A DNA stretch of 64,000 bases from a virus (taxonomy: Duplodnaviria > Heunggongvirae > Uroviricota > Caudoviricetes), in IMG/VR virus record IMGVR_UViG_2778261574_000002. One strand, written 5' to 3'. The translations under genes were made by a program, and so were the position numbers. The notes under the pieces were generated by a model. It did no database searches. It worked only from the letters and a program-made list of their open reading frames with translations, and had not been told where the DNA came from. This document shows, one piece after another, positions 1-38,131 of this stretch (within the stretch, counting starts at the first letter, position 1; each line of letters starts with the position of its first letter).

Positions 1-27
1 GGGGATCTTTTCACCGCTGGTACCGAG

Positions 28-53
28 TTCTCTTAAACCAAGGTTTTTGCGAA
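28..53. other. cix/gix-like serine-invertase crossover site
   Basis: TTCTCTTAAACC-AA-GGTTTTTGCGAA: imperfect inverted half-sites with the AAACC..GGTTT core of Gin/Cin/Hin crossover sites, 65 bp upstream of the invertase gene. Confidence 0.5.
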
Positions 54-117
54 TTGCCTCCGTGTCGTCTGAACGATATTTTTTCCCGCTTTTAGCAACA
101 ATCGCTGGTGATAAAGT

Positions 118-699
118 ATGCAATATGGTTATGCGAGAGTGTCAACTTTTGACCAAAATTTAGAATTACAACTGGAGGCGCTCAGGAGTTCAGGATGTGA
201 CCGGATTTTTGAAGATAAAATATCCGGTGCGAAGTCAAAACGACCAGGGCTTGATAAGCTGATAAAAGTGTTGCGGCCTGGCGATACGGTTGTTGTCTGG
301 AAACTGGACCGAATGGGACGTTCTCTGATTCATCTTGTTGAGTTACTGAACTTTTTTTTATCAAACAACATTGAGTTTATTTCGGTTACAGAAGGGATAA
401 AAATTAGCACATCAATTGGCCGCTTTGCTTACACGATGCTGAGTGCGGCTGCAGAGCTGGAGCGGGAAAATATTATTGAAAGAACGCGTGCAGGATTGGC
501 TGTGGCAAGGGCTAACGGCAGGATAGGAGGACGCCGTTCAAAACTGACACCAGAGCAATGGGAGCAGGCCGGACGTTTATTAGCGCAAGGAGTCCCCCGC
601 AAGCAGGTCGCATTGATCTACGATGTGGCTCTGTCAACTTTGTATAAAAAACACCCCGCCAAACGAACGTGCATAGAAAGTAACGCTCAAACCAATTGA
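118..699 (+). CDS. serine recombinase, DNA invertase family (mosaic)
   Basis: YARVST catalytic-serine motif and VVWKLDRMGRS; C-terminal GRIGGRR..EQAGRLLAQG..ALIYDVALSTLYK resembles the Gin/Cin HTH domain; N-terminal half is more resolvase-like. Confidence 0.85.
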   Translation: MQYGYARVSTFDQNLELQLEALRSSGCDRIFEDKISGAKSKRPGLDKLIKVLRPGDTVVVWKLDRMGRSLIHLVELLNFFLSNNIEFISVTEGIKISTSIGRFAYTMLSAAAELERENIIERTRAGLAVARANGRIGGRRSKLTPEQWEQAGRLLAQGVPRKQVALIYDVALSTLYKKHPAKRTCIESNAQTN

Positions 700-831
700 A
701 TCGGTCGGCAACACAGATTGATTGTGCCCCAATAGCCACACTCAACCCACGATGTTTTTTTCGATAGTGGCGAATTGATGTAAAGGAGGTGAGATGAAAT
801 CAATTCGCTGTAAGACCTCCATTTTCCAACA

Positions 832-1056
832 TCACAACCAAGTAACGCTGCTGCCCGCAAAATGATCTAACGCCCATACGACCAGGGTGTCACCTCTGGA
901 AAGCATACGCAAAACCTTTTTTAGCCCTGGGCGTTCAGCCTTTTTGCCGCTCGCCTTGTCCTCAAAAATCAGCTCACATCTTGCGCTTTCAAGGGCATTT
1001 CGTTGCAAAGCAGTGTTTTGTTCATTTGTTGATACGCGTACATAGCCTATTAGCAT
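832..1056 (-). pseudogene. cin: truncated cin invertase remnant
   Basis: MLIGYVRVSTNEQNTALQRNALESARCELIFEDKASGKKAERPGLKK..TLVVW matches the Cin/Gin N-terminus; frame diverges and stops after 74 codons. Confidence 0.7.
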
Positions 1057-1183
1057 ATTTTCTGCTCACTATCGTTATTTATAGCAAGCTGCGGATTTTA
1101 ATTAACAAAAACCAGTATGTGTGGAAATCACAAAGTACATACCGTTCCCCAATGACGAACAACTCAAAATTGGCAAGGTTTTT

Positions 1184-1465
1184 ATGTCTGACTTTACAAT
1201 TTTATTTTTATCTATCTTTGGCGGAGTGCATTCGTTTCTGAATGGGGTTCGTGAAAAACGTTACGAAGCGTCATGCAGGCAATTGCTGGCCGAGTGTATT
1301 GCTGCCGTACTTGCAGGCTTTATAGGCATGTATTTCGCGGAATATAAGGGTATGGATGAAAGTCTTCAGAATTGCGTGACTATTATTTGCAGCATCAATA
1401 ACAGGCTCATTCTTGAAAAGTTACAAAGGATTATCGATTCGTACCTCAATAGAAATGCCTCTTAA
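1184..1465 (+). CDS. holin-like small membrane protein (LydC-like position)
   Basis: ATG at 1184 after AAGG; hydrophobic segments FTILFLSIFGG and IAAVLAGFIGMYF; architecture resembles the downstream LydA. Confidence 0.4.
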   Translation: MSDFTILFLSIFGGVHSFLNGVREKRYEASCRQLLAECIAAVLAGFIGMYFAEYKGMDESLQNCVTIICSINNRLILEKLQRIIDSYLNRNAS

Positions 1466-4812: not shown

Positions 4813-5174
4813 CACTATCAGCTATTGAGTTAATGGATCTCAGCGATAAGTTGGATGCTCTGATGTCCAAGGCGGCTACCGCGAGTGGCATGGAGTTGCT
4901 GGATATCAGCGATGAAATTGACCAGATCATGCAACAGATGGGGTACGGCGCGTCCGGCGGCAGTAGTGGCGAGGAAAAACAACCTTCGGTACATGATGGT
5001 GTGCCAAAACTGGTTGCTGATTTCCTGGCTGATAAATTCGTCGATCAGAGCACAGATGCATTTATCGGTACCTTGCAGGACTTGAGTCAATATGTTGGCA
5101 CATACATCGACCTGGACCAGGTTAAACAGCACACGGCGGCATGGATAGCCGCCAACATTAAAGAGGCAGCATAA
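4809..5174 (+). CDS. ddrA: DdrA
   Basis: 121-aa acidic protein, 4-nt overlap with darA stop; position as in the P1 darA operon. Confidence 0.6.
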   Translation: MTLSAIELMDLSDKLDALMSKAATASGMELLDISDEIDQIMQQMGYGASGGSSGEEKQPSVHDGVPKLVADFLADKFVDQSTDAFIGTLQDLSQYVGTYIDLDQVKQHTAAWIAANIKEAA

Positions 5175-5186
5175 GGCGTAACAGGG

Positions 5187-8174
5187 ATGAGCTTAAGCGA
5201 TCAGGTGGTTATGGCCACCAGCATAGAAACGCTGATCGAGCTGCTAAAGAACCTGCCCGATTATGGGCGGGTTTCGTATGTGGTGACAGCGAAGGGAGAC
5301 GAGGTAAAAACAGCGTTTGATATCGTCGATGCCTCGGCTCTTTTGGTATCCAATACTCTGGACGGGAAAATTAATCCGGACTATCCCCAGGAACTTCAGC
5401 CGCGCGACCGGACCCGCGCATCCAGCCTTCTTCAGGTTAACCAGATATCCAAAGATTTGCGACCTGCTCAGCTTACCGATTCCGGTTTATCCAGCCATGG
5501 CGCGCCGATAATTGGTGAGGACAATGCCGTTGAGTCGGGTAATGGACGGACCATGGGGATCATTAAAGCCTATCAGGACGGCAATGCGGATCGGTATCGG
5601 GAGTATCTGATTGAACATGCGACCGAATTCGGCATACGACCTGAAAAGGTTGAATCAATGACGGCCCCGGTACTGGTGCGCCGCCGGTTAACTAAGGTTG
5701 ACCGCGTTCAGTTTGCCAAGGACTCAAATATTTCTGATCTTCAGGAAATGGCAGCCAGTGAAAAGGCTTTTGTTGATGCCGACAACATAACTTCGGCGAT
5801 GATGGCGCTGTTTAACCCGTCAGAAAGCGGAGATCTGCTTAGCCGCAGTAATGACGCGTTTATCCGCGGATTCATGACGCAAGTTGGTGCCACACAGGCT
5901 GCTGGCCTTGTAACGGAAGATGGGCGACCAACACGGCAACTTGTAGACCGTATACAAAACGCGATCTTTGCCAAGGCATATAAGGATGCGCGCCTGGTAA
6001 GGATGGTTGCAGAAGAACCTGATCCAGATATGCGTAATGTTCTGACGGCGCTTAATGCGGCAGCCAATGATTTTGTCCAGATGCAGGCTTTATCAGGTGA
6101 AGCGCACAAGCAGGCTGTGACAACTATTGTTGATGGTATTGAGACAGCGGATAGTCTCGATAAAAAGGCGCTGGCGGCATTGAAAGATGCGGTAGACCTG
6201 GTAAGGCAATCGAAGGAGTCAGGCCAACATATTACCGATGTTATTGCTCAGGGGGATATGTTCAGCGAAACGGCCCCGGAAGTGAAAGCACTCGCGTTGT
6301 TTATCGTCGCGAATAACCGTAGCGCGAAGCGTATGGCCACCGCCTTTAAGTTGATGGCGCAACGTATCAATGATGAGTTACAGCACCAGGGCCAGGCGCT
6401 CGGGGATATGTTTGGCGGCGGCGATGTGTCGTTACAGGATATCCTTCGCCAGGTGTCTCAGGAACTGGAAAACGAAGGTATGCAAGGGATATCCAGCGGT
6501 CTTTTCGAGTCAGCTTCCGGCGGTAGTTACAACGGTGTTGCTCCATATACCAGTTTGCTATTACATCGGGCATCCGGCATCAAAGACATTATTCATCTGA
6601 TCAGGCTGCTTTCCCGTACAGATCCCCAGGATGAACAGCTTGTACAAGTGCTTGCGCATTTTGTTCGAATGCCTGTTGCCGACGTGAAAAAATGGTGCCG
6701 ATTATTCGGTATCAGCAATTCGTTACTTCGCGGCTTGTTAAATCACGCATCCTCCCTTGGGCGCGATGGCTTTGACGAGATAGCGCAGGCGATAAAAAAC
6801 GGAGATATGCCACCAGCTATTGACTGGTTTTCCATTCGCCCAACCAGGGTGAAAGCATTCCTTAGCGCGGCGCATTCGGCATCACCATTGGCAGAAATGG
6901 TTCAGAGGTTGTCGCTCATATTCACAGATCATACCGCGTTGGGTGATCTGACTCTTGACGAGATGAAAGAAGCCTCCATTCAGTGGGCCGATCAACAAAA
7001 TGAGGTTAACTCTGACTTCTTGCCAGCATTCAGGAAGGCCGTTAGTAAAGCGGATGATGCCCGTGGAATTCTGAAGGCATTTAAGGCATTGCAAAGTCGG
7101 GTTAATAAACATGTCGGTGGTATCGATGGAGTAACGGCGGAAGGCAGGGATATCCTTAAAGAGCACGGCATAACGCCAGAGTTTATTGATGAGATCAGGA
7201 CGGATATGCAGCGTGAGGTCGTATCGTCCCTGCAAATTGTAGCCAGGGCGTTGGCGGATGCTAATCCGAAGAGTGCGGCCATTGTTAACCGGGTTATTGG
7301 TGATATTGAAGCATCGGAGGGCATGGGGGCGCTGAAACTCTTCCTTTCGCGAGCGTTTAATCCTAACGGCAATATTCTCCCTGGCATTATTGGTGAGGCT
7401 AAAAAGTATGTCAGTGAAGAAGAACTTGAGCAGCTTGACCAACTACTTAAGCGATTCTCATATAACCCGCAGACACGCTGGCAAATGAATCAGCGAAGTA
7501 TGGGGTCGGTCCACGAGAAAGTGTTATCTGCCATGAACAGTGCGATCGCAAACTCATCCGTATCTGAAGAAAAAGCTCTTGAGTGGGCCGACTCTTTTAT
7601 CACGGAAGAAGTGGAAGAAGCCCGCGCTGGACAGAATGGTGGGATAGACCTGCGCAAGGAACTTGCTGATATTTATCGCCTGACCGGCGGGAAAATATCG
7701 ACCTTATCAAAGGTGATTCACCACCAGGGAAGGGCATATGCAAATCTAAATGGTGTTGTTGCTGTCAATTTGAACGATGAAAATGCAAGTGCACTGTGGC
7801 ACGAGCTGGGTCATCATCTTGAGTACAGTAACCCTGGTTTGTTAGAGAAAGCCCGGTCATTCCTGAAGGCCAATGTTGAAGGGGATAAGCCATCATTCGT
7901 CAATATCGGTGGGCGTGGCAAGCCTGAATGGTGCTTCAGATCTCGATTGAGTAATATTTATATGGCGAAGGTATACCCGCCAGTCTCAGTGAGTAACTCA
8001 GGGAAAATTCGGCAGAAATCACCGACTATTTCCAAAACGTCAGCAACGGAAGTATTCTCTATGGCTCTTCAGTTGTATCATGACAAAGAGGCCGCTGCCG
8101 CATCACTGATGAATGGTGACGGATTGCTGGAACTGTTATTAGGTGTGGCAAAGGAACTAAATAATGCAGATTAA
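5187..8174 (+). CDS. ddrB: DdrB, large head-associated Dar component
   Basis: 995 aa, follows ddrA; size and position match P1 DdrB. Confidence 0.7.
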   Translation: MSLSDQVVMATSIETLIELLKNLPDYGRVSYVVTAKGDEVKTAFDIVDASALLVSNTLDGKINPDYPQELQPRDRTRASSLLQVNQISKDLRPAQLTDSGLSSHGAPIIGEDNAVESGNGRTMGIIKAYQDGNADRYREYLIEHATEFGIRPEKVESMTAPVLVRRRLTKVDRVQFAKDSNISDLQEMAASEKAFVDADNITSAMMALFNPSESGDLLSRSNDAFIRGFMTQVGATQAAGLVTEDGRPTRQLVDRIQNAIFAKAYKDARLVRMVAEEPDPDMRNVLTALNAAANDFVQMQALSGEAHKQAVTTIVDGIETADSLDKKALAALKDAVDLVRQSKESGQHITDVIAQGDMFSETAPEVKALALFIVANNRSAKRMATAFKLMAQRINDELQHQGQALGDMFGGGDVSLQDILRQVSQELENEGMQGISSGLFESASGGSYNGVAPYTSLLLHRASGIKDIIHLIRLLSRTDPQDEQLVQVLAHFVRMPVADVKKWCRLFGISNSLLRGLLNHASSLGRDGFDEIAQAIKNGDMPPAIDWFSIRPTRVKAFLSAAHSASPLAEMVQRLSLIFTDHTALGDLTLDEMKEASIQWADQQNEVNSDFLPAFRKAVSKADDARGILKAFKALQSRVNKHVGGIDGVTAEGRDILKEHGITPEFIDEIRTDMQREVVSSLQIVARALADANPKSAAIVNRVIGDIEASEGMGALKLFLSRAFNPNGNILPGIIGEAKKYVSEEELEQLDQLLKRFSYNPQTRWQMNQRSMGSVHEKVLSAMNSAIANSSVSEEKALEWADSFITEEVEEARAGQNGGIDLRKELADIYRLTGGKISTLSKVIHHQGRAYANLNGVVAVNLNDENASALWHELGHHLEYSNPGLLEKARSFLKANVEGDKPSFVNIGGRGKPEWCFRSRLSNIYMAKVYPPVSVSNSGKIRQKSPTISKTSATEVFSMALQLYHDKEAAAASLMNGDGLLELLLGVAKELNNAD

Positions 8175-8475: not shown

Positions 8476-8500
8476 AATCCCGCCAATCGGCGGGATTTTT
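8476..8500. terminator. rho-independent terminator hairpin, bidirectional position
   Basis: AAATCCCGCC-AATC-GGCGGGATTT followed by T run; sits between convergent + and - operons. Confidence 0.6.
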
Positions 8501-8503
8501 ACC

Positions 8504-9598
8504 TCACGAGAAGCTCTTTTCTGATGTCAGCCAACAGTGCTCGTGCAAATCTCTTGGTGGTTTTTCGACAAATGCCTCTTCAGCCACATCCTGCCAGGGG
8601 ATTTGTTTAGCCCATTCAGCTATAGCGTTATGGTTTGCCGAGAATAACGGTATTGTATAGGCCTTCAGCCAGTCTAATGTGCTGGAGTTGTGTTTTTGAG
8701 CGTGATGTTTCGCATGGTGTTTGGCGATCACGATCGTAGGCACTACCCATTTACTACCGTCAGTCATTGTGAAGTGCATATTACGGGGAACAGATGACTT
8801 TTCCATCAACTCCCGAATCCCGGGAAATTTCCCCAAGATCAATCGGCGATATTCATCGCTATTGCGCCCACCAAACTCTTTGGCTTTGAATTCAAGATAT
8901 GCTTCAGAAACGAGAGGTGAATCCTCTGTGTTTAGAGTTATCGCCGTGAAAAAACCAGCAGGATTGTTTTTACTATGGGCCAACCGGTGATGCGAATCAT
9001 AAAAGTACCCTTTCTCGCGTTCCGATGGTTTCGACAGCAACAGCAGGCGCGAGTCATAATTGGTTAAATTGCCAGTTATCACTGCATGAGCGCGATCGCT
9101 GATTTCCGCCGAGTTAATAACGATGAAAAGATCGTGCGGTCCAGTAAAACCAGCCAGAGACACTTCGTTATTCAGACAATAGGTTATATAGACGCATCCC
9201 CATATTTCACTGATATGCACCAACCCTTTGTCAGGGTGCATTCTGAAATGATTGCCAAGAAAAGGGTGTTTTTGGGTAACTCGCTCCCAATAACGGAACA
9301 TATAGTCAATTATTGTTTTTCGACTATCGTTAATAGCAGGAGAAACAACCACTGTACGGGAACACGAATACAGTATTGTTTGCAGGATGCTAATCACTGC
9401 CACAATAGAGGTTTCCCCAATACCATGTGGTGTGGTGGCAGTGACTTTGGCTCCGGTGTTCTTTATCGCGTTAATAATTTTTGCTTGATGAGGTGTTAAC
9501 TCAATATCAAGCAACTCTTTCGCTGCCAGTTCCCAATTGTCTTTATACTGTTCTATCAGTGCTAACCAGGCAGGTTCATTCTGTATACGATTAGTCAC
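8504..9598 (-). CDS. PacB-like terminase large-subunit paralog, ATPase-like domain only
   Basis: segment LLLLSKPSEREKGYFYDSHHRLA..FTAITLNTEDSPLV aligns with Pac[36 protein letters not shown]; Walker A position reads PHGIGETS (Lys replaced). Confidence 0.6.
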   Translation of the reverse strand: MTNRIQNEPAWLALIEQYKDNWELAAKELLDIELTPHQAKIINAIKNTGAKVTATTPHGIGETSIVAVISILQTILYSCSRTVVVSPAINDSRKTIIDYMFRYWERVTQKHPFLGNHFRMHPDKGLVHISEIWGCVYITYCLNNEVSLAGFTGPHDLFIVINSAEISDRAHAVITGNLTNYDSRLLLLSKPSEREKGYFYDSHHRLAHSKNNPAGFFTAITLNTEDSPLVSEAYLEFKAKEFGGRNSDEYRRLILGKFPGIRELMEKSSVPRNMHFTMTDGSKWVVPTIVIAKHHAKHHAQKHNSSTLDWLKAYTIPLFSANHNAIAEWAKQIPWQDVAEEAFVEKPPRDLHEHCWLTSEKSFS

Positions 9599-10385
9599 TT
9601 TCCACCTCTTCCGTGGTGTTTTCTTGCAGTTCTGTTAATGCAGCACGACACAGGTTCCGGGCCTTGGCTATAGCCACACTTTTGACTTCATCTGTCATCG
9701 TGCAGGTAATGTACTGATCGAGTTCTTCAGCGCGGATGATGCTTTTGCCAATCAGAAACTGTATTTGCCAGAGCAGATCGGCATCCATAATCAGAATTTC
9801 TGCCGGGCCTTCAGGGCCAGCCGGGAAGGAAACATAAGACTGTTTGCCAAGGCCGATAACTCGACAACTTGCTTCAAGAATTGCGCGCTTGAGGTCTGAC
9901 TTTGTAACTGAAACAGGTTGATTTTCACCTGCGATTACGCCGTTGACATGGATGTGGAAGGGCATGTAGCTTGAAATTCGCTCTACTTTCCATACGCCAG
10001 CAAGCGATCCTTCATGCAGCACAATGGGGGTAACAGCGAGTTTCATCTCACCATATAACTGCTGGCAGATAGCTGGATTGCTGAATACATCCAAAGGTTC
10101 ACACTCAAACAGCGGTGCAATCTGCATGAGGTCCATCATGGTCATACCTGGGGTACGAGCGGTAATGAATCTGCGCATGCCAGTATCCATTGTTCGCCAG
10201 ATAGCTACACCATGCTTTTTGCTCACTTCTTCAGTAAAGCCAAGGTGGCACATGATGGTTTTTTCGATAGCCAGATCAGAGATAGAAACCTTTTCGCCTG
10301 GCACTCCATCATTATTGATGGTCACTTCGACACTCTGGCCATTACGTAGGCGGTATTGAATGGTTTTAGTATTTTGTGCTGTCAT
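9591..10385 (-). CDS. hypothetical protein, co-transcribed with ssb
   Basis: 264-aa ORF with 8-nt overlap onto the PacB-like gene; no recognisable motif. Confidence 0.5.
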   Translation of the reverse strand: MTAQNTKTIQYRLRNGQSVEVTINNDGVPGEKVSISDLAIEKTIMCHLGFTEEVSKKHGVAIWRTMDTGMRRFITARTPGMTMMDLMQIAPLFECEPLDVFSNPAICQQLYGEMKLAVTPIVLHEGSLAGVWKVERISSYMPFHIHVNGVIAGENQPVSVTKSDLKRAILEASCRVIGLGKQSYVSFPAGPEGPAEILIMDADLLWQIQFLIGKSIIRAEELDQYITCTMTDEVKSVAIAKARNLCRAALTELQENTTEEVESD

Positions 10386-12089: not shown

Positions 12090-14820
<2,731 letters not shown>

Positions 14821-14886
14821 TTAATTAGAATAATTCGCATCGTGTTTTAACGGAATTTAACACTAGTCACTTGTTAAGGATTACCA

Positions 14887-17800
14887 ATGAACAAGCTATC
14901 TATGGGGGTGTTTCGCTGTTCAAGTGTCAGCGAAATATTGAAATACATTAGGGCAATAACATCTCACCGAGCGCCGATTAAATACGGCGTGGAAAAGGTG
15001 GAAGGCAAAAGCTATGACCGACTGCGCCGGGAGGCGAATCAGAAGGCGATAGATTTGCTTAATTCGCTGGTGGACGGCGCGACACTGACAGATGAACAGC
15101 GCCAGATCCTGGCCGGGTACACTGGTGAAGGCGGCATTGGCGGGTCCGTCTCCGAATATTACACACCAAAGCCTATCGCTGAAGGTGTCTGGGAGATCAT
15201 GAAGCTCTACGGCGCGGACGTAGGTAACACTCTGGAACCATCGGCGGGAACCGGCGTTTTTAATGAGACAAAACCGGTTGGTACGGTGATGACCGCGACT
15301 GAGATCAGCAGTGTTTCCGGTCGTATAAACCAGTTGTTACACCCGGAAGACAGCGTACAGATTTCCCCGTTCGAACAGCTGGCTATAAACACGCCTAACG
15401 ATTCATTCGACCATGTTGTGGGTAACGTTCCGTTCGGCGGTCGTGATAACACACGCAACATCGATAAGCCTTACGCAGAAGAAACGGACATGGGGTCTTA
15501 CTTCATGCTCCGCATGCTGGACAAGATAAAACCTGGCGGATTCATGTGTGTGATTGTGCCGCCGTCCATTGTTTCAGGTTCAAACATGAAGCGGTTACGC
15601 CTGCGCTTATCCCGTAAAGCTGAATTTCTTGGTGCCCACCGCCTGCCTACCGGTACTTTTGACGCAAACGGGACCAGTACGGTCGTAGATGTGGTGCTGA
15701 TGCGCAAACATCCGGCAGAGATGGCTGAGAAAATCCCCCTGGTGGATGAAAGCACTCTTGAATCGGCAAATGTGCTTTGGCCAACGTTTATTTCTGGCAA
15801 GTGGTTTGAAAAGGATGGCCGCCGGTTTGTTCATGGCACCCAGGAAAAGGGCTTCCAGGGGCGTATTGAGGTTCGTGCCGACGGTCAGATTGATAACCAG
15901 GCTCTTAAAGCGAAGCTGATTCATCGTTTCGAAAGCCGTATCGACTGGTCTTTGCTCGATATGGCTGAACCGTCACCGACCGCAGACGTTGTTGGTGAAG
16001 GGGAAATGCGCCTGATTAATGGCGTATGGCAAAAATATGCTGGTGGTCGCTGGATTGAAGCTGATGCCGGGAAGGAACTTAAGATCGATGCTGCCAGTTA
16101 TGGCGCGGATAGCTGGGAGGCTCTTCAGCGTAACCTGACTACAACAGAAGGCCGTCTCGGCATGACATTTACCCAGATGGCAAATGTCCGCGATAAGTAC
16201 ACCACATCAATCAGCGACGATATGGTGCAGCTGGTGGACTGGATTAACAGCCAGCCTGAAAAATACCGTGAACGCTTGTATCGCGGGGCGATGATTGGCC
16301 GGATGTTAATTGAATATCAGGACATGAAGGCCGCCGGGCATAGTGCTGAACAAATCGAACAACAGCGCCTTTCTCTGGTGTCCCGTTTGCAGGCAGAGAT
16401 TGACCGTTTTGGTAACCCCGGTCGCGGTCCGATAGCTAAATTATCGGGAAGCGGTGCGCGCTCCTGGTTTGCTTTCCGTGGTGCAATTAAGCTGGATGGC
16501 ACTATTTCTGACGAGCTGGCAGGAAAGCTGGTTACGCATGATTCCAGCGCCAGTTATGACTCCACCAGCTATCAGGACACCCTGCGTTATCTCTATAGCG
16601 ATCTTACCCGCGATCCAATCCAGCTCGATGATTTCCGCCTTGCGTTTACCGGCGAACTGCCAGCCAGTGATGAAGAGTTGCTTAATTTATTGGCCAGCAC
16701 CCCTGGTATTGCGGTTTCACCGTATGGCGGGATTGTTCCGTTCGCCCGCGCCACCAGCGGCGACATTAACGAGATAGTGGCTCCAAAACAGGAATTCCTT
16801 GCCACACTCCCCGACGGTCCAGTAAAGAACAACGTCCTTAATCAGCTGGCAGCGATCGAAGAGAAGCGCATCAAGACGCCAGCAGAGAATATCCGCTTTA
16901 AGCTCAATAGCCGTTGGTTCGACCGCTCCGTCATTCTGGAGTTTTTGCAGGAAAACGGCTATCCGGATCTGCGCTATGTGCAGTCAGTGCAGCTGGAAGG
17001 CGACGAAATGGTTTCTGACACCTATCACGGTGGTGATGGTCTGTTCGTCGGGCACCGATACGGTGTCGTCCAGCGCAAGGATAAAGAAACAGGCGAGATC
17101 CGCTACGAGTGGGACCGTAAATCAGGTGAAAACGCGACCGGGTTCCCGGCACAGCTGGAAAAGTATCTCAATGGTGCGCGTATCGGTGGCAAAGATAGCG
17201 CGACGGCGAACGGCTACCGCGAGCAGATGGCACTGCTTGAGGACCAGTTCAATAAGTGGATCAAGACGCACGATCGCTACGATGAGCTGGTTGCCAAATA
17301 CAACGATGTTTTCAATAGCAATATCCCGTATGAACACTCTGGCGATCCGCTTGGGTTGAAGGGATTAAGCGGTAAGCGACAGCCATTTGATTACCAGAAT
17401 AGCGAGGTGCGCCGACTGTCCGAAGATGGGCGCGGCATCCTGGGCTTCGGTACCGGGCTGGGTAAAACCACGACCGCGCTGGCGCTTGAGGCGTTCAACT
17501 ATGAGAACGGTCGTTCCACCCGTACTGCGTATGTAGTGCCTAAATCAGTGCTGGAAAACTGGTATTACGAAGCAAAAGAGTTTCTGAGTGAAGAGGCATT
17601 CAGTAACTACCTGTTCGTCGGTCTTGATGTGCTGATGGATGGCGATCAGATTCGCCAGGTGCCGGTGCTCGATGAGAACGGTAAACCTGTCGTTGGTGCA
17701 GATGGCACTCCCGTTATGCGCGATGCCCTTAAGCTGGCAGATGAAGCCACTATCACGGCGCGGATGAACGCGATCCCGCACTCAAACTACCGTGCAGTCG

Positions 17801-37019: not shown

Positions 37020-38131
37020 TTCGCCTCCTGCGGCGGTTCTGGTAGCGGCATCCAGTGTGACGGTTTCCACGACGCACCAGGAATTATCCAACCATCATTA
37101 GCGTCAGGATACCCCGGTATGTAAGTCGCCCATTTCATTCGCCAGTCACCTTTCCTATCAAACTCCCTGGCAACAAGAACGGCTGTTTTGCTATCCGGCA
37201 TTCGCTCACTACAGCTTATCCAACCATCCGGAGTTACCGGAACTTGCGGAATGGCTGTCTGCTCTCGAACGTCATTAGGCGCTATAGGTTCTGCTGCCAA
37301 CTGACTGGCATATTTGTTAATGGTAACGATAAGCTCTTGCTCGGCCTCATCCAGACAATCACCGATACCTCGCCTGTCACCGTCAAAATCATCGAAATCG
37401 GCACGAATCTTGGCAACCTCCTGGATTGCGGACAACACTTCACCAGGAATAAGCCGAGAGTTGCCCGATAGTGCATTCTGCTCCAGTGATGCTTTTACAA
37501 ACCACGCTGCCTGAACTATAACGCCATGAATCCAGCGCAAATCAGCATCGCGATCTTTCTTTTTCATCTTTTCGCCACTTAAGGCCTTGCTTATGTGGCT
37601 GCGTACCAGGTCTTCATGTAATTCCTTCGCCTCCTCAATGGTGAAACCACCAGGCAGAAGAGCCGGAGTTACCGGAGAGCTGGTTGACGCTTCCGGGATT
37701 TCCCGAAAATTATTGGTTGACGAATTCTTGCTTTCCCGAAAGTTTCCGGACTGAAGCATGGCGGTGCGGCAGGCGTTCCATATTTCGGCAGCAATATCGC
37801 GCTCGCTATCGGTTAATTTGTACGTGGAAACATAGCCAGAGAGCATTTCTACGTTTTCCGGAGTTGCTTCTTCCGGCACTACCGGCGCTGGCGGGGCGAT
37901 GCGTCCAAGCAACTTATTTACCTCTTTCGCCATCGCGTCATATTTATCTAAATGGCGATTAGCTTCTAAGCAGACTCGGCGCATCTGATCTGAGTTAACT
38001 CGTTTAACTGGATCTGCTTCCAGCGATGCCAGCGCAATCCGTGCCAGTTCCATTTGTTCACCACGGGTAAGCCCGTTTTCAAGCGGATTTTTAATGAACA
38101 ATTCAATACGTTCTTTGGTAATAGTGGTCAT
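37016..38131 (-). CDS. hypothetical protein with DUF551-like C-terminus
   Basis: C-terminal W..SERMPDSKTAVLV..SHWMPLPEPP pattern; N-terminal domain paralogous to 38844-39239 (shared PVVPEE..WNACR.AMLQ). Confidence 0.5.
   Translation of the reverse strand: MTTITKERIELFIKNPLENGLTRGEQMELARIALASLEADPVKRVNSDQMRRVCLEANRHLDKYDAMAKEVNKLLGRIAPPAPVVPEEATPENVEMLSGYVSTYKLTDSERDIAAEIWNACRTAMLQSGNFRESKNSSTNNFREIPEASTSSPVTPALLPGGFTIEEAKELHEDLVRSHISKALSGEKMKKKDRDADLRWIHGVIVQAAWFVKASLEQNALSGNSRLIPGEVLSAIQEVAKIRADFDDFDGDRRGIGDCLDEAEQELIVTINKYASQLAAEPIAPNDVREQTAIPQVPVTPDGWISCSERMPDSKTAVLVAREFDRKGDWRMKWATYIPGYPDANDGWIIPGASWKPSHWMPLPEPPQEAK

Follow-up and report, generated by a model that had tools for sequence, protein, structure and literature searches.

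Din-type serine invertases flip DNA segments that lie between two inverted crossover sites. In Gin, Hin and Cin, enzyme dimers bound to the sites meet at an enhancer occupied by Fis, cut the central dinucleotide of each site, rotate by 180 degrees and religate. In P1, JL22 and D6, the crossover site cixL is followed by a full-length cin gene that reads toward the invertible segment and whose stop codon lies four bases from the cixL crossover, whereas in Mu and in a family of ~48-kb phage-plasmids the invertase reads away from the segment. We call the invertase of this last family Y-type; it is represented by the 'hin' gene of Yersinia phage vB_YpM_39, by the 48.5-kb plasmid of E. coli ATCC 25922, and by pRHB23-C02_4. 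Here we describe a locus at the beginning of a 64,000-nt stretch of Caudoviricetes DNA (IMG/VR record IMGVR_UViG_2778261574_000002; the whole stretch is referred to below as the window), in which DNA of the P1, Y and Mu types lies side by side. We find that this locus is very probably the invertase end of a working Din-type (Gin/Cin/Hin/Pin) tail-fibre switch on a P1-like phage-plasmid.

The first 1.3 kb of the window are 100% identical to the IncY P1-like plasmids pRHB23-C02_3 and pRHB23-C01_3 from Escherichia fergusonii and pB16EC0268-4 from E. coli. Salmonella phage SJ46 is 99.6% identical to the window from position 28 onward; window 1-27 has no match in SJ46 on either strand, because SJ46 has a different invertible segment. 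Downstream of the locus lies the P1 lydC-like/lydA/lydB/hdf/darA/ddrA/ddrB block. By these alignments, the locus is the counterpart of the stretch of P1 that holds the right C-segment end, cixL and cin, and a blastn comparison accordingly finds window 1-46 to be 100% identical to the C-segment end and cixL of P1. Positions 1-39, which have no strand, make up the right end of the invertible tail-fibre segment, namely the inner arm of an inverted repeat and the start of the Sv/Sv' variable part, with the inner half-site at 28-39. In pRHB23-C02_3 this right arm is part of a 205-nt inverted repeat and is 93% identical to its partner arm. Both arms carry the same sequence as window 1-45, so the window cannot tell which way round the segment lay in its source.

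The crossover site itself occupies positions 28-53 and was already flagged as cix- or gix-like in a first-pass annotation made from the sequence alone. It is a 26-bp imperfect dyad of the hix/gix/cix type, TTCTCTTAAACC-AA-GGTTTTTGCGAA, which has no strand and carries its core dinucleotide at 40-41. Comparison with known sites reveals it to be a hybrid: the inner half and the AA core are those of P1 cixL (TTCTCTTAAACC AA GGTTTAGGATTG), and the outer half is that of the Y-type site found beside the invertase of the 48-kb phage-plasmids (TTCCTGTAAACC GA GGTTTTTGCGAA). For comparison, Mu gixR reads TTCCTGTAAACC GA GGTTTTGGATAA. We found no second site of the hix/gix/cix type within the 64-kb window; the partner lies outside it. 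A match to AWACCNNGGTWT at position 37109 was considered as a partner and rejected, as it has a CC core and no half-site similarity.

The first-pass annotation had proposed to look for the partner to the left of the window, and there it is, in plasmids identical to the window. In pRHB23-C02_3, the site TTATCCAATACC-TT-GGTTTAAGAGAA lies at 5744-5769, 4,284 bp to the left and inside the tail-fibre gene S, and is identical to P1 cixR. In this plasmid, two inverted 26-bp sites with matching AA and TT cores, each flanked internally by the 205-nt inverted repeats, thus bracket a segment, which is the arrangement that defines a Din system. According to the annotation, the segment carries alternative fibre ends and their chaperones (Sv-U and U'-Sv') in opposite orientations. 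The corresponding segment of SJ46 is different and shorter (3.2 kb), with other fibre cassettes and inner half-sites that read GGTTTAGG[C/A]GAA. The silent Sv' cassette of pRHB23-C02_3 is called a 'tail fiber protein' by PGAP (8480-10123, minus strand, reaching window position 123), with a start inside the invertase gene and a frame that crosses the crossover site. This call is an artefact of a promoterless, headless cassette, and the annotated Sv' product differs with the orientation of the segment.

Sister plasmids allowed the switch to be seen in both states. The plasmids pRHB23-C02_3 and pRHB23-C01_3, whose two host isolates came from a single farm sample, differ in that the fibre and chaperone genes have changed places, and flipping pRHB23-C02_3 in silico between the two cores reproduces pRHB23-C01_3 with 0 mismatches over 10.5 kb. 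SJ46 flipped in this way likewise matches the Salmonella plasmid p14076B over 14.2 kb, except at 3 positions that all lie outside the segment. The C/A polymorphism of the inner half-sites changes sides between SJ46 and p14076B, and the exchange is therefore confined to the ~10 bp that contain the core. An exact core-to-core inversion in two carrier lineages with an identical invertase means that the switch flips in nature, precisely and in vivo. Because the resident invertase gene is intact and conserved, we infer that its product catalyzes these inversions.

This gene, at 118-699 on the plus strand, encodes a complete 193-aa Din (Gin-family) serine DNA invertase, in agreement with the first-pass call of a full-length serine recombinase. 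Its product matches the Pfam domains Resolvase (PF00239, E 7.8e-44) and HTH_7 (PF02796, E 4.4e-15), and both the catalytic Ser9 (in YARVST) and a KLDRMGRS motif are present; matches to NCBIfam were limited to other serine recombinase models, below threshold, and uninformative. The protein had been described as having a resolvase-like catalytic half, a notion that the alignments contradict: it is colinear with Gin (PDB 3uj3) over residues 2-191, at 61% identity and E 1.3e-71, against 7.6e-31 for γδ resolvase and 3.3e-27 for Tn3 resolvase. Nor do the sites suit a Tn3-family resolvase, since they are inverted, single 26-bp units; no directly repeated res site with multiple subsites was seen. The protein is not the orthologue of P1 Cin either, from which it differs in sequence (56% identity over residues 1-147, 69% over 148-183 and 58% overall), in strand, and in which end of the gene lies beside the site, the start here and the stop in cin. 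Orthology with Mu Gin is excluded by 54% identity over residues 1-147 and by a com gene that is truncated after 28 nt, with no mom. Codon differences between carrier lineages number nine synonymous and two non-synonymous in one comparison, and 12 and one in another, a pattern that indicates purifying selection on the invertase.

To resolve the ancestry of the cassette, we combined blastn segments, a four-way alignment, phylogenetically informative sites and per-segment identities, and obtained four consecutive blocks. Positions 1-46 are of P1 type and identical to P1, comprising the segment arm, the inner cixL half, the AA core and GGTTT. Positions 47-556 are of Y type, at 92% nucleotide identity, and comprise the outer half-site, a 64-nt leader and codons 1-147. 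Positions 564-821 are of Mu type, with the 3' end of gin (87%), the gin-com spacer (89%) and the first 28 nt of com. From 822 the sequence is of cin type, on the minus strand. The leader of the incoming gene (54-117, plus strand) is 92% identical to vB_YpM_39 and 42% identical to Mu, in line with its Y-type assignment.

Within the invertase gene, informative sites among the window, the Y-type gene and Mu are nearly all of Y type up to 556 and of Mu type from 564, and this division explains 354 of the 425. The breakpoint at 556-564 (plus strand) corresponds to codons 147-149, at the boundary between the catalytic domain with its E helix and the helix-turn-helix (HTH), and falls in a short conserved patch, AATGGGA.CAG. 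At the protein level, identity to the Y-type invertase drops from 94% (residues 1-147) to 59% (148-184), while identity to Mu Gin rises from 54% (1-147) to 83% (148-193); the near-identity of the HTH to Gin, noted from the start, holds with one difference over residues 149-183. On these comparisons, the invertase is a natural chimera of two parts, with codons 1-147 of Y type and codons 149-193 of Mu Gin type. The first-pass annotation had correctly recognized a chimeric recombinase, but its AT-rich middle patch does not stand as a separate piece. The GC content does fall to 0.35 at 301-400, where the AT-rich stretch encodes LLNFFLSNNIEFISV; this stretch is found in all members of the Y-type family (as LLNHFLSNNIEFISI and LLNYFLSNNIEFISV), and by that distribution is native to the donor invertase family rather than a third piece.

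Beyond the invertase, a stretch of Mu DNA that the first-pass annotation had missed leads into the remains of cin. Positions 700-793 (plus strand) are a relic of the Mu gin-com intergenic region, which contains the mom promoter and regulatory region, and are 89% identical to Mu. Where Mu has its two GATC motifs, this stretch has GGTC and GATT, as befits a regulatory region that has fallen out of use. The relic is followed at 794-821 (plus strand) by the first 28 nt of a Mu-type com (ATG AAA TCA ATT CGC TGT AA.), again at 89%, and at 821 the homology to Mu ends. The com ATG at 794 now opens a 23-codon open reading frame (ORF), 794-865, that runs antisense into the cin stump. This 28-nt com fragment fused to antisense cin is the footprint that most clearly points to a Mu-like donor.

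The cin pseudogene extends over 822-1056 on the minus strand and retains codons 1-78 of a P1-type cin. Its residual ORF (832-1056, 74 codons) encodes a 74-aa product that matches Pfam Resolvase at E 5.7e-20 and is identical to P1 Cin at 60 of its first 61 residues, which bears out the convergent cin remnant reported earlier. The extent of about 62 codons given for it was too short: in alignments with P1, JL22 and D6, DNA homology to cin reaches codon ~78, at window 822. The apparent divergence past codon 61 is due to clustered substitutions that turn KLDRLGR into ALDHFAG and to a 1-nt deletion between 848 and 849. The gene had also been called decapitated, when in fact it is the 3' end that was lost; the start codon, the ribosome-binding site and the P1cin promoter are kept. 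These upstream elements lie in 1057-1155 (minus strand), which differs from P1 at one position (T/C at 1147), with the predicted P1cin promoter placed after the annotation of the P1 record (-10 at 1095-1100, -35 at 1122-1127). Inside the stump, 967-1038 (no strand) maps to the 'enhancer of Cin-mediated C-segment inversion' of P1 (P1 record 6516-6587) and is a relic of this element that differs from P1 at 5 of 72 positions. Upstream of the stump, similarity to P1 breaks at ~1156, immediately ahead of the lydC-like holin gene, and the diverged stretch, 1156-1465, takes in the interval of the P2cin promoter predicted in P1. The longest ORF has 114 aa from a GTG at 1121, and the PGAP product has 93 aa from 1184.

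The junction, the deletion and the substitutions of the stump are common to all four carrier lineages, which are the window type, the SJ46 type, an E. marmotae plasmid and the plasmid unnamed2 of E. coli 10034292-3. The arrangement therefore arose once. The last two plasmids are D6-like, and so, in them, is the DNA at the 5' end of the stump and upstream of it, which is not of P1 type; it follows that homologous recombination has carried the cassette between the P1 and D6 lineages as the stump decayed. Their stumps carry extra frameshifts, and PGAP marks one of them 'incomplete'.

Like other Din systems, the new invertase may rely on an enhancer within its own gene. A putative recombinational enhancer (136-207, no strand; nt 19-90 of the gene) sits at the same gene position as the annotated enhancer of P1 cin and contains candidate Fis sites at ~139-153 and 187-202, ~48 bp apart. 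Among 20 distinct homologues, synonymous variation at these two sites is 0.19, against a gene mean of 0.42, a dip that ranks third of 125 placements in what was a post hoc test; the degenerate Fis consensus is itself unspecific, with ~3 matches per kb. Together these data are suggestive of an enhancer inside the 5' coding region of the invertase. In the Gin alignment, residues 104-114 of the protein include Thr106 and Leu114, at positions (His106 and Met114) to which Fis-independent mutants of Gin and Hin map, the crystallized Gin carrying V114. On a reading that we consider unlikely, the combination of a foreign catalytic core with a Gin HTH and with T106 and L114 would have changed the dependence of the enzyme on Fis and the enhancer. 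A scan of window 1-1300 for promoters and terminators performed no better than on shuffled sequences.

In the mechanism that we propose, the invertase would bind the site at 28-53 and its partner in gene S and, aided by a Fis-bound enhancer near the 5' end of its own coding sequence, would cleave the two sites at the AA/TT core (40-41), rotate the ends and religate them. The segment with Sv-U and U'-Sv' would thereby flip, and the C terminus of the fibre would be swapped. As for its origin, the ancestor would have been of the P1/D6 type, with cixL and a cin that read toward the segment. A foreign cassette of site and invertase in the Mu layout would then have taken the place of cin codons 79-186 and of the outer cixL half, so that the active invertase now points away from the segment, the direction that it also has in Mu and the Y-type plasmids. 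The incoming gene would already have been a recombinant, composed of the catalytic part from a 48-kb phage-plasmid, the HTH of Gin and the downstream Mu β-region DNA. The first-pass annotation had suggested that a heterologous invertase captured the switch after recombination inside cin, and the presence of a foreign cassette at the position of cin, with the cin stump left beside it, supports this interpretation; its account of the underlying observations is confirmed in part.

The two outer junctions of the cassette differ in character. The left one, which was not recognized in the first-pass annotation, falls within 41-46, at the crossover core, and may have been made by an invertase, through recombination of cix with a gix-like site and conversion of the core to AA. 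Such recombination between cix and gix-like sites, with core conversion, is known for Cin; the core here is AA as in P1, and the Mu and Y-type sites have GA. The right one (821/822) joins nt 28 of com to nt ~236 of cin with at most ACAG as microhomology and was probably an illegitimate fusion. Donor type and recipient do meet, as a P1-like plasmid and a 48.7-kb Y-type phage-plasmid are co-resident in both E. fergusonii strains. In IMG/VR, searches for a closer donor of 47-821 outside P1-like elements turned up, apart from SJ46/P1-like contigs at 100%, only Y-type genes of 88% identity or less, and in the GTDB representatives nothing above 81%. A search of PLSDB with the junction region found eight plasmids with the junction plus one 52-kb plasmid with a Mu-type gin-com-mom (97.5% to Mu), and no intermediate with a full Mu gin, a partial com and a partial cin.

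Several points weigh against the view of a switch driven by the captured invertase that it carries. Both E. fergusonii hosts, in which the P1-like plasmids lie in opposite orientations, harbor the second invertase gene of the 48.7-kb phage-plasmid, whose product has a catalytic domain 94% similar to that described here, and the other inverted pair comes from Salmonella, hosts in which Hin is normally present. Since Din invertases are established to cross-complement, catalysis in trans is possible. The promoter scan recognized no promoter for 118-699, the enhancer test was post hoc in a 5' coding region of a kind that other causes can constrain, and the left junction at the core could reflect a later exchange of segments between P1 relatives. 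Finally, IMG/VR, the GTDB representatives and PLSDB yielded no donor above ~92% identity, so that parsimony is the basis both for the sequence of events and for deciding which lineage recombined at 556-564. Carried to its conclusion, the argument from catalysis in trans would make the 193-aa gene a passenger, perhaps inactive or poorly expressed, whose segment is flipped by the invertases of the 48-kb plasmid, Hin or Pin. We consider this quite unlikely, given that the gene is intact in every carrier with all of its catalytic motifs, that its protein is identical in SJ46-type and window-type plasmids and occurs on 282 contigs, and that synonymous changes far outnumber non-synonymous ones while the neighboring cin stump gains frameshifts. 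It is somewhat easier to imagine, though still unlikely, that the stump itself is functional, either because 967-1038 serves as a second Fis enhancer or because antisense transcription driven from P1cin damps switching, or both, such that a dead gene would set the flipping rate of its replacement. In all carriers the P1cin promoter, the ribosome-binding site, the ATG and the whole enhancer interval are free of insertions and deletions, and we found no terminator-like site on the minus strand between 1056 and 118. However, all carriers stem from one event, and retention of the stump is thus not independent evidence of selection; the stump has frameshifts and motif-destroying substitutions, more of them in the D6-like carriers, where the upstream region is of D6 type and not P1cin; and the enhancer interval, with 5 of 72 differences from P1 and ~6 of 72 between the E. 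marmotae plasmid and D6, is no better conserved than the rest.

The remaining two alternatives concern history rather than function, and both appear highly improbable. The first-pass picture of a chimera in three parts, in which a foreign AT-rich insert would separate a catalytic half of the Tn3/resolvase kind from a Gin/Cin HTH, has on its side the drop in GC at 301-400 and the low identity of the N-terminal half to Gin (54%). Yet over residues 1-147 the protein shares 94% identity with a Din-type invertase whose gene, in the 48-kb phage-plasmids, adjoins an invertible segment like the G segment of Mu, Gin is a far better match than γδ resolvase (E 1e-71 against 8e-31), the AT-rich patch belongs to all members of the donor family, and the informative sites yield a single breakpoint, at 556-564. 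That the arrangement in the window should be ancestral for P1-like phages, with the layout of P1 derived, could be argued from the Mu, hin and 48-kb plasmid systems, where the invertase reads away from the segment. Against such a polarity, the minus-strand cin is truncated and frameshifted here and full-length in P1, JL22 and D6, the stump abuts a 28-nt fragment of Mu com, and the arrangement is carried by only 8 of the 516 matching plasmids. The replacement of cin by a two-part foreign invertase, followed by decay of the stump, accounts for these features, and an assembly artefact was rejected because 10 or more complete, independent records contain the structure.

We found the junction in 8 of 516 matching PLSDB plasmids, in one plasmid among 5,426 complete RefSeq E. 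coli genomes, and in SJ46, and the exact invertase protein (WP_001749380.1, with a UniRef entry from SJ46) is present on 282 public contigs under the names 'DNA-invertase' or 'recombinase family protein'. As SJ46 is 99.6% identical, the structure has already been deposited and annotated. The annotation of SJ46 does not comment on the mosaic. Literature on SJ46 and P1-like phage-plasmids names lydC-cin-Sv'-U'-U-S as a variable region; in the papers found, we saw no description of the replacement, the chimera or the pseudogene, and the mosaic history of the locus appears to be undescribed. The biology is known, the Din inversion switch being a textbook system, the protein had been deposited, and what we report is ordinary shuffling of phage modules.

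Other features of these elements came to light in the course of the comparison. The 48.7-kb phage-plasmids pRHB23-C02_4 and pRHB23-C01_4 (Y-type invertase at 5007-5651) carry P2-like baseplate and tail genes and repA. They have a Mu-G-like invertible fibre segment of their own, which makes two Din switches per cell; this segment has the same annotated gene order in both strains, whereas the P1-like segment differs. In SJ46, an IS605-family insQ/TnpB insertion (14186-15394) separates ddrA from the ddrB-like gene; the window lacks it at ~5174-5187, and the two genes are 12 nt apart. Five tRNA genes (Met-CAT, Ser-TGA, Thr-TGT, Tyr-GTA and Arg-TCT) lie on the minus strand at 56009-58208 and were the only Rfam matches; three are described for P1, fewer than in the window.

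Our analysis leaves the understanding of Din systems unchanged, and its value lies in a natural example, cleanly preserved, of phage host-range switches being reassembled from parts. Modules of unrelated mobile elements (a P1-like plasmid, a Mu-like phage and a 48-kb phage-plasmid) met at the crossover site, which acted as their boundary, and a serine invertase recombined at the boundary between its catalytic and DNA-binding domains has remained under purifying selection. Engineered recombinases exploit the same modularity. The displaced cin was left behind as a datable pseudogene, and for annotation this means that a cin pseudogene is what has been called as the 'second recombinase' in SJ46-type and related plasmids. 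A 3-4 kb inversion between assemblies of such plasmids can likewise be genuine. With regard to what had been named as grounds for abandoning the idea of a captured switch, the 193-aa protein is not Cin (58% identity), the ORF at 832-1056 derives from an invertase, and a second crossover site exists upstream.

Set against known systems, the invertase shares with the Tn3 and γδ resolvases the small serine recombinase fold and the order of domains, but its match to them is weaker than to Gin by ~40 orders of magnitude in E-value, and the locus differs from theirs in its inverted sites. In SJ46, 'pin' (YP_009293493.1) and the 'DNA invertase' fragment (YP_009293494.1) correspond to an identical invertase and to the cin stump with the same junction, and the 3.2-kb invertible segment is another one. 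With the invertase of the ~48-kb phage-plasmids, the locus has in common the outer half-site GGTTTTTGCGAA, the 64-nt leader, codons 1-147 (92% in nucleotides, 94% in amino acids) and the AT-rich LLN.FLSNNIEFIS stretch; in that family, however, the protein has 184 aa and another HTH and tail (59%, ending ...PAGNH), the invertase is followed by repA or parAB and not by Mu DNA, and the core of the site is GA. With Mu Gin and the G segment it shares the succession of segment, 26-bp site and an invertase reading away, the length of 193 aa, and 122 nt downstream of the invertase that match the gin-com spacer and com start at 89%. It departs from Mu in the catalytic part (54%), in the core (GA in Mu and AA here) and inner half-site, in a com cut after 28 nt with mom absent, and in belonging to a P1-like plasmid prophage instead of a transposable phage. 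The frame of the switch, finally, is that of Cin and the C segment in P1 (also P7, D6 and JL22): the position between S-U-U'-Sv' and lydC/lydA is the same, the partner is cixR, the inner half-site, AA core and repeat arm are those of cixL, and the cin promoter remains with 78 codons. It is within this P1 frame that the active invertase is not Cin (58%) and lies on the opposite strand, that cin is a pseudogene, and that the outer half-site is foreign.

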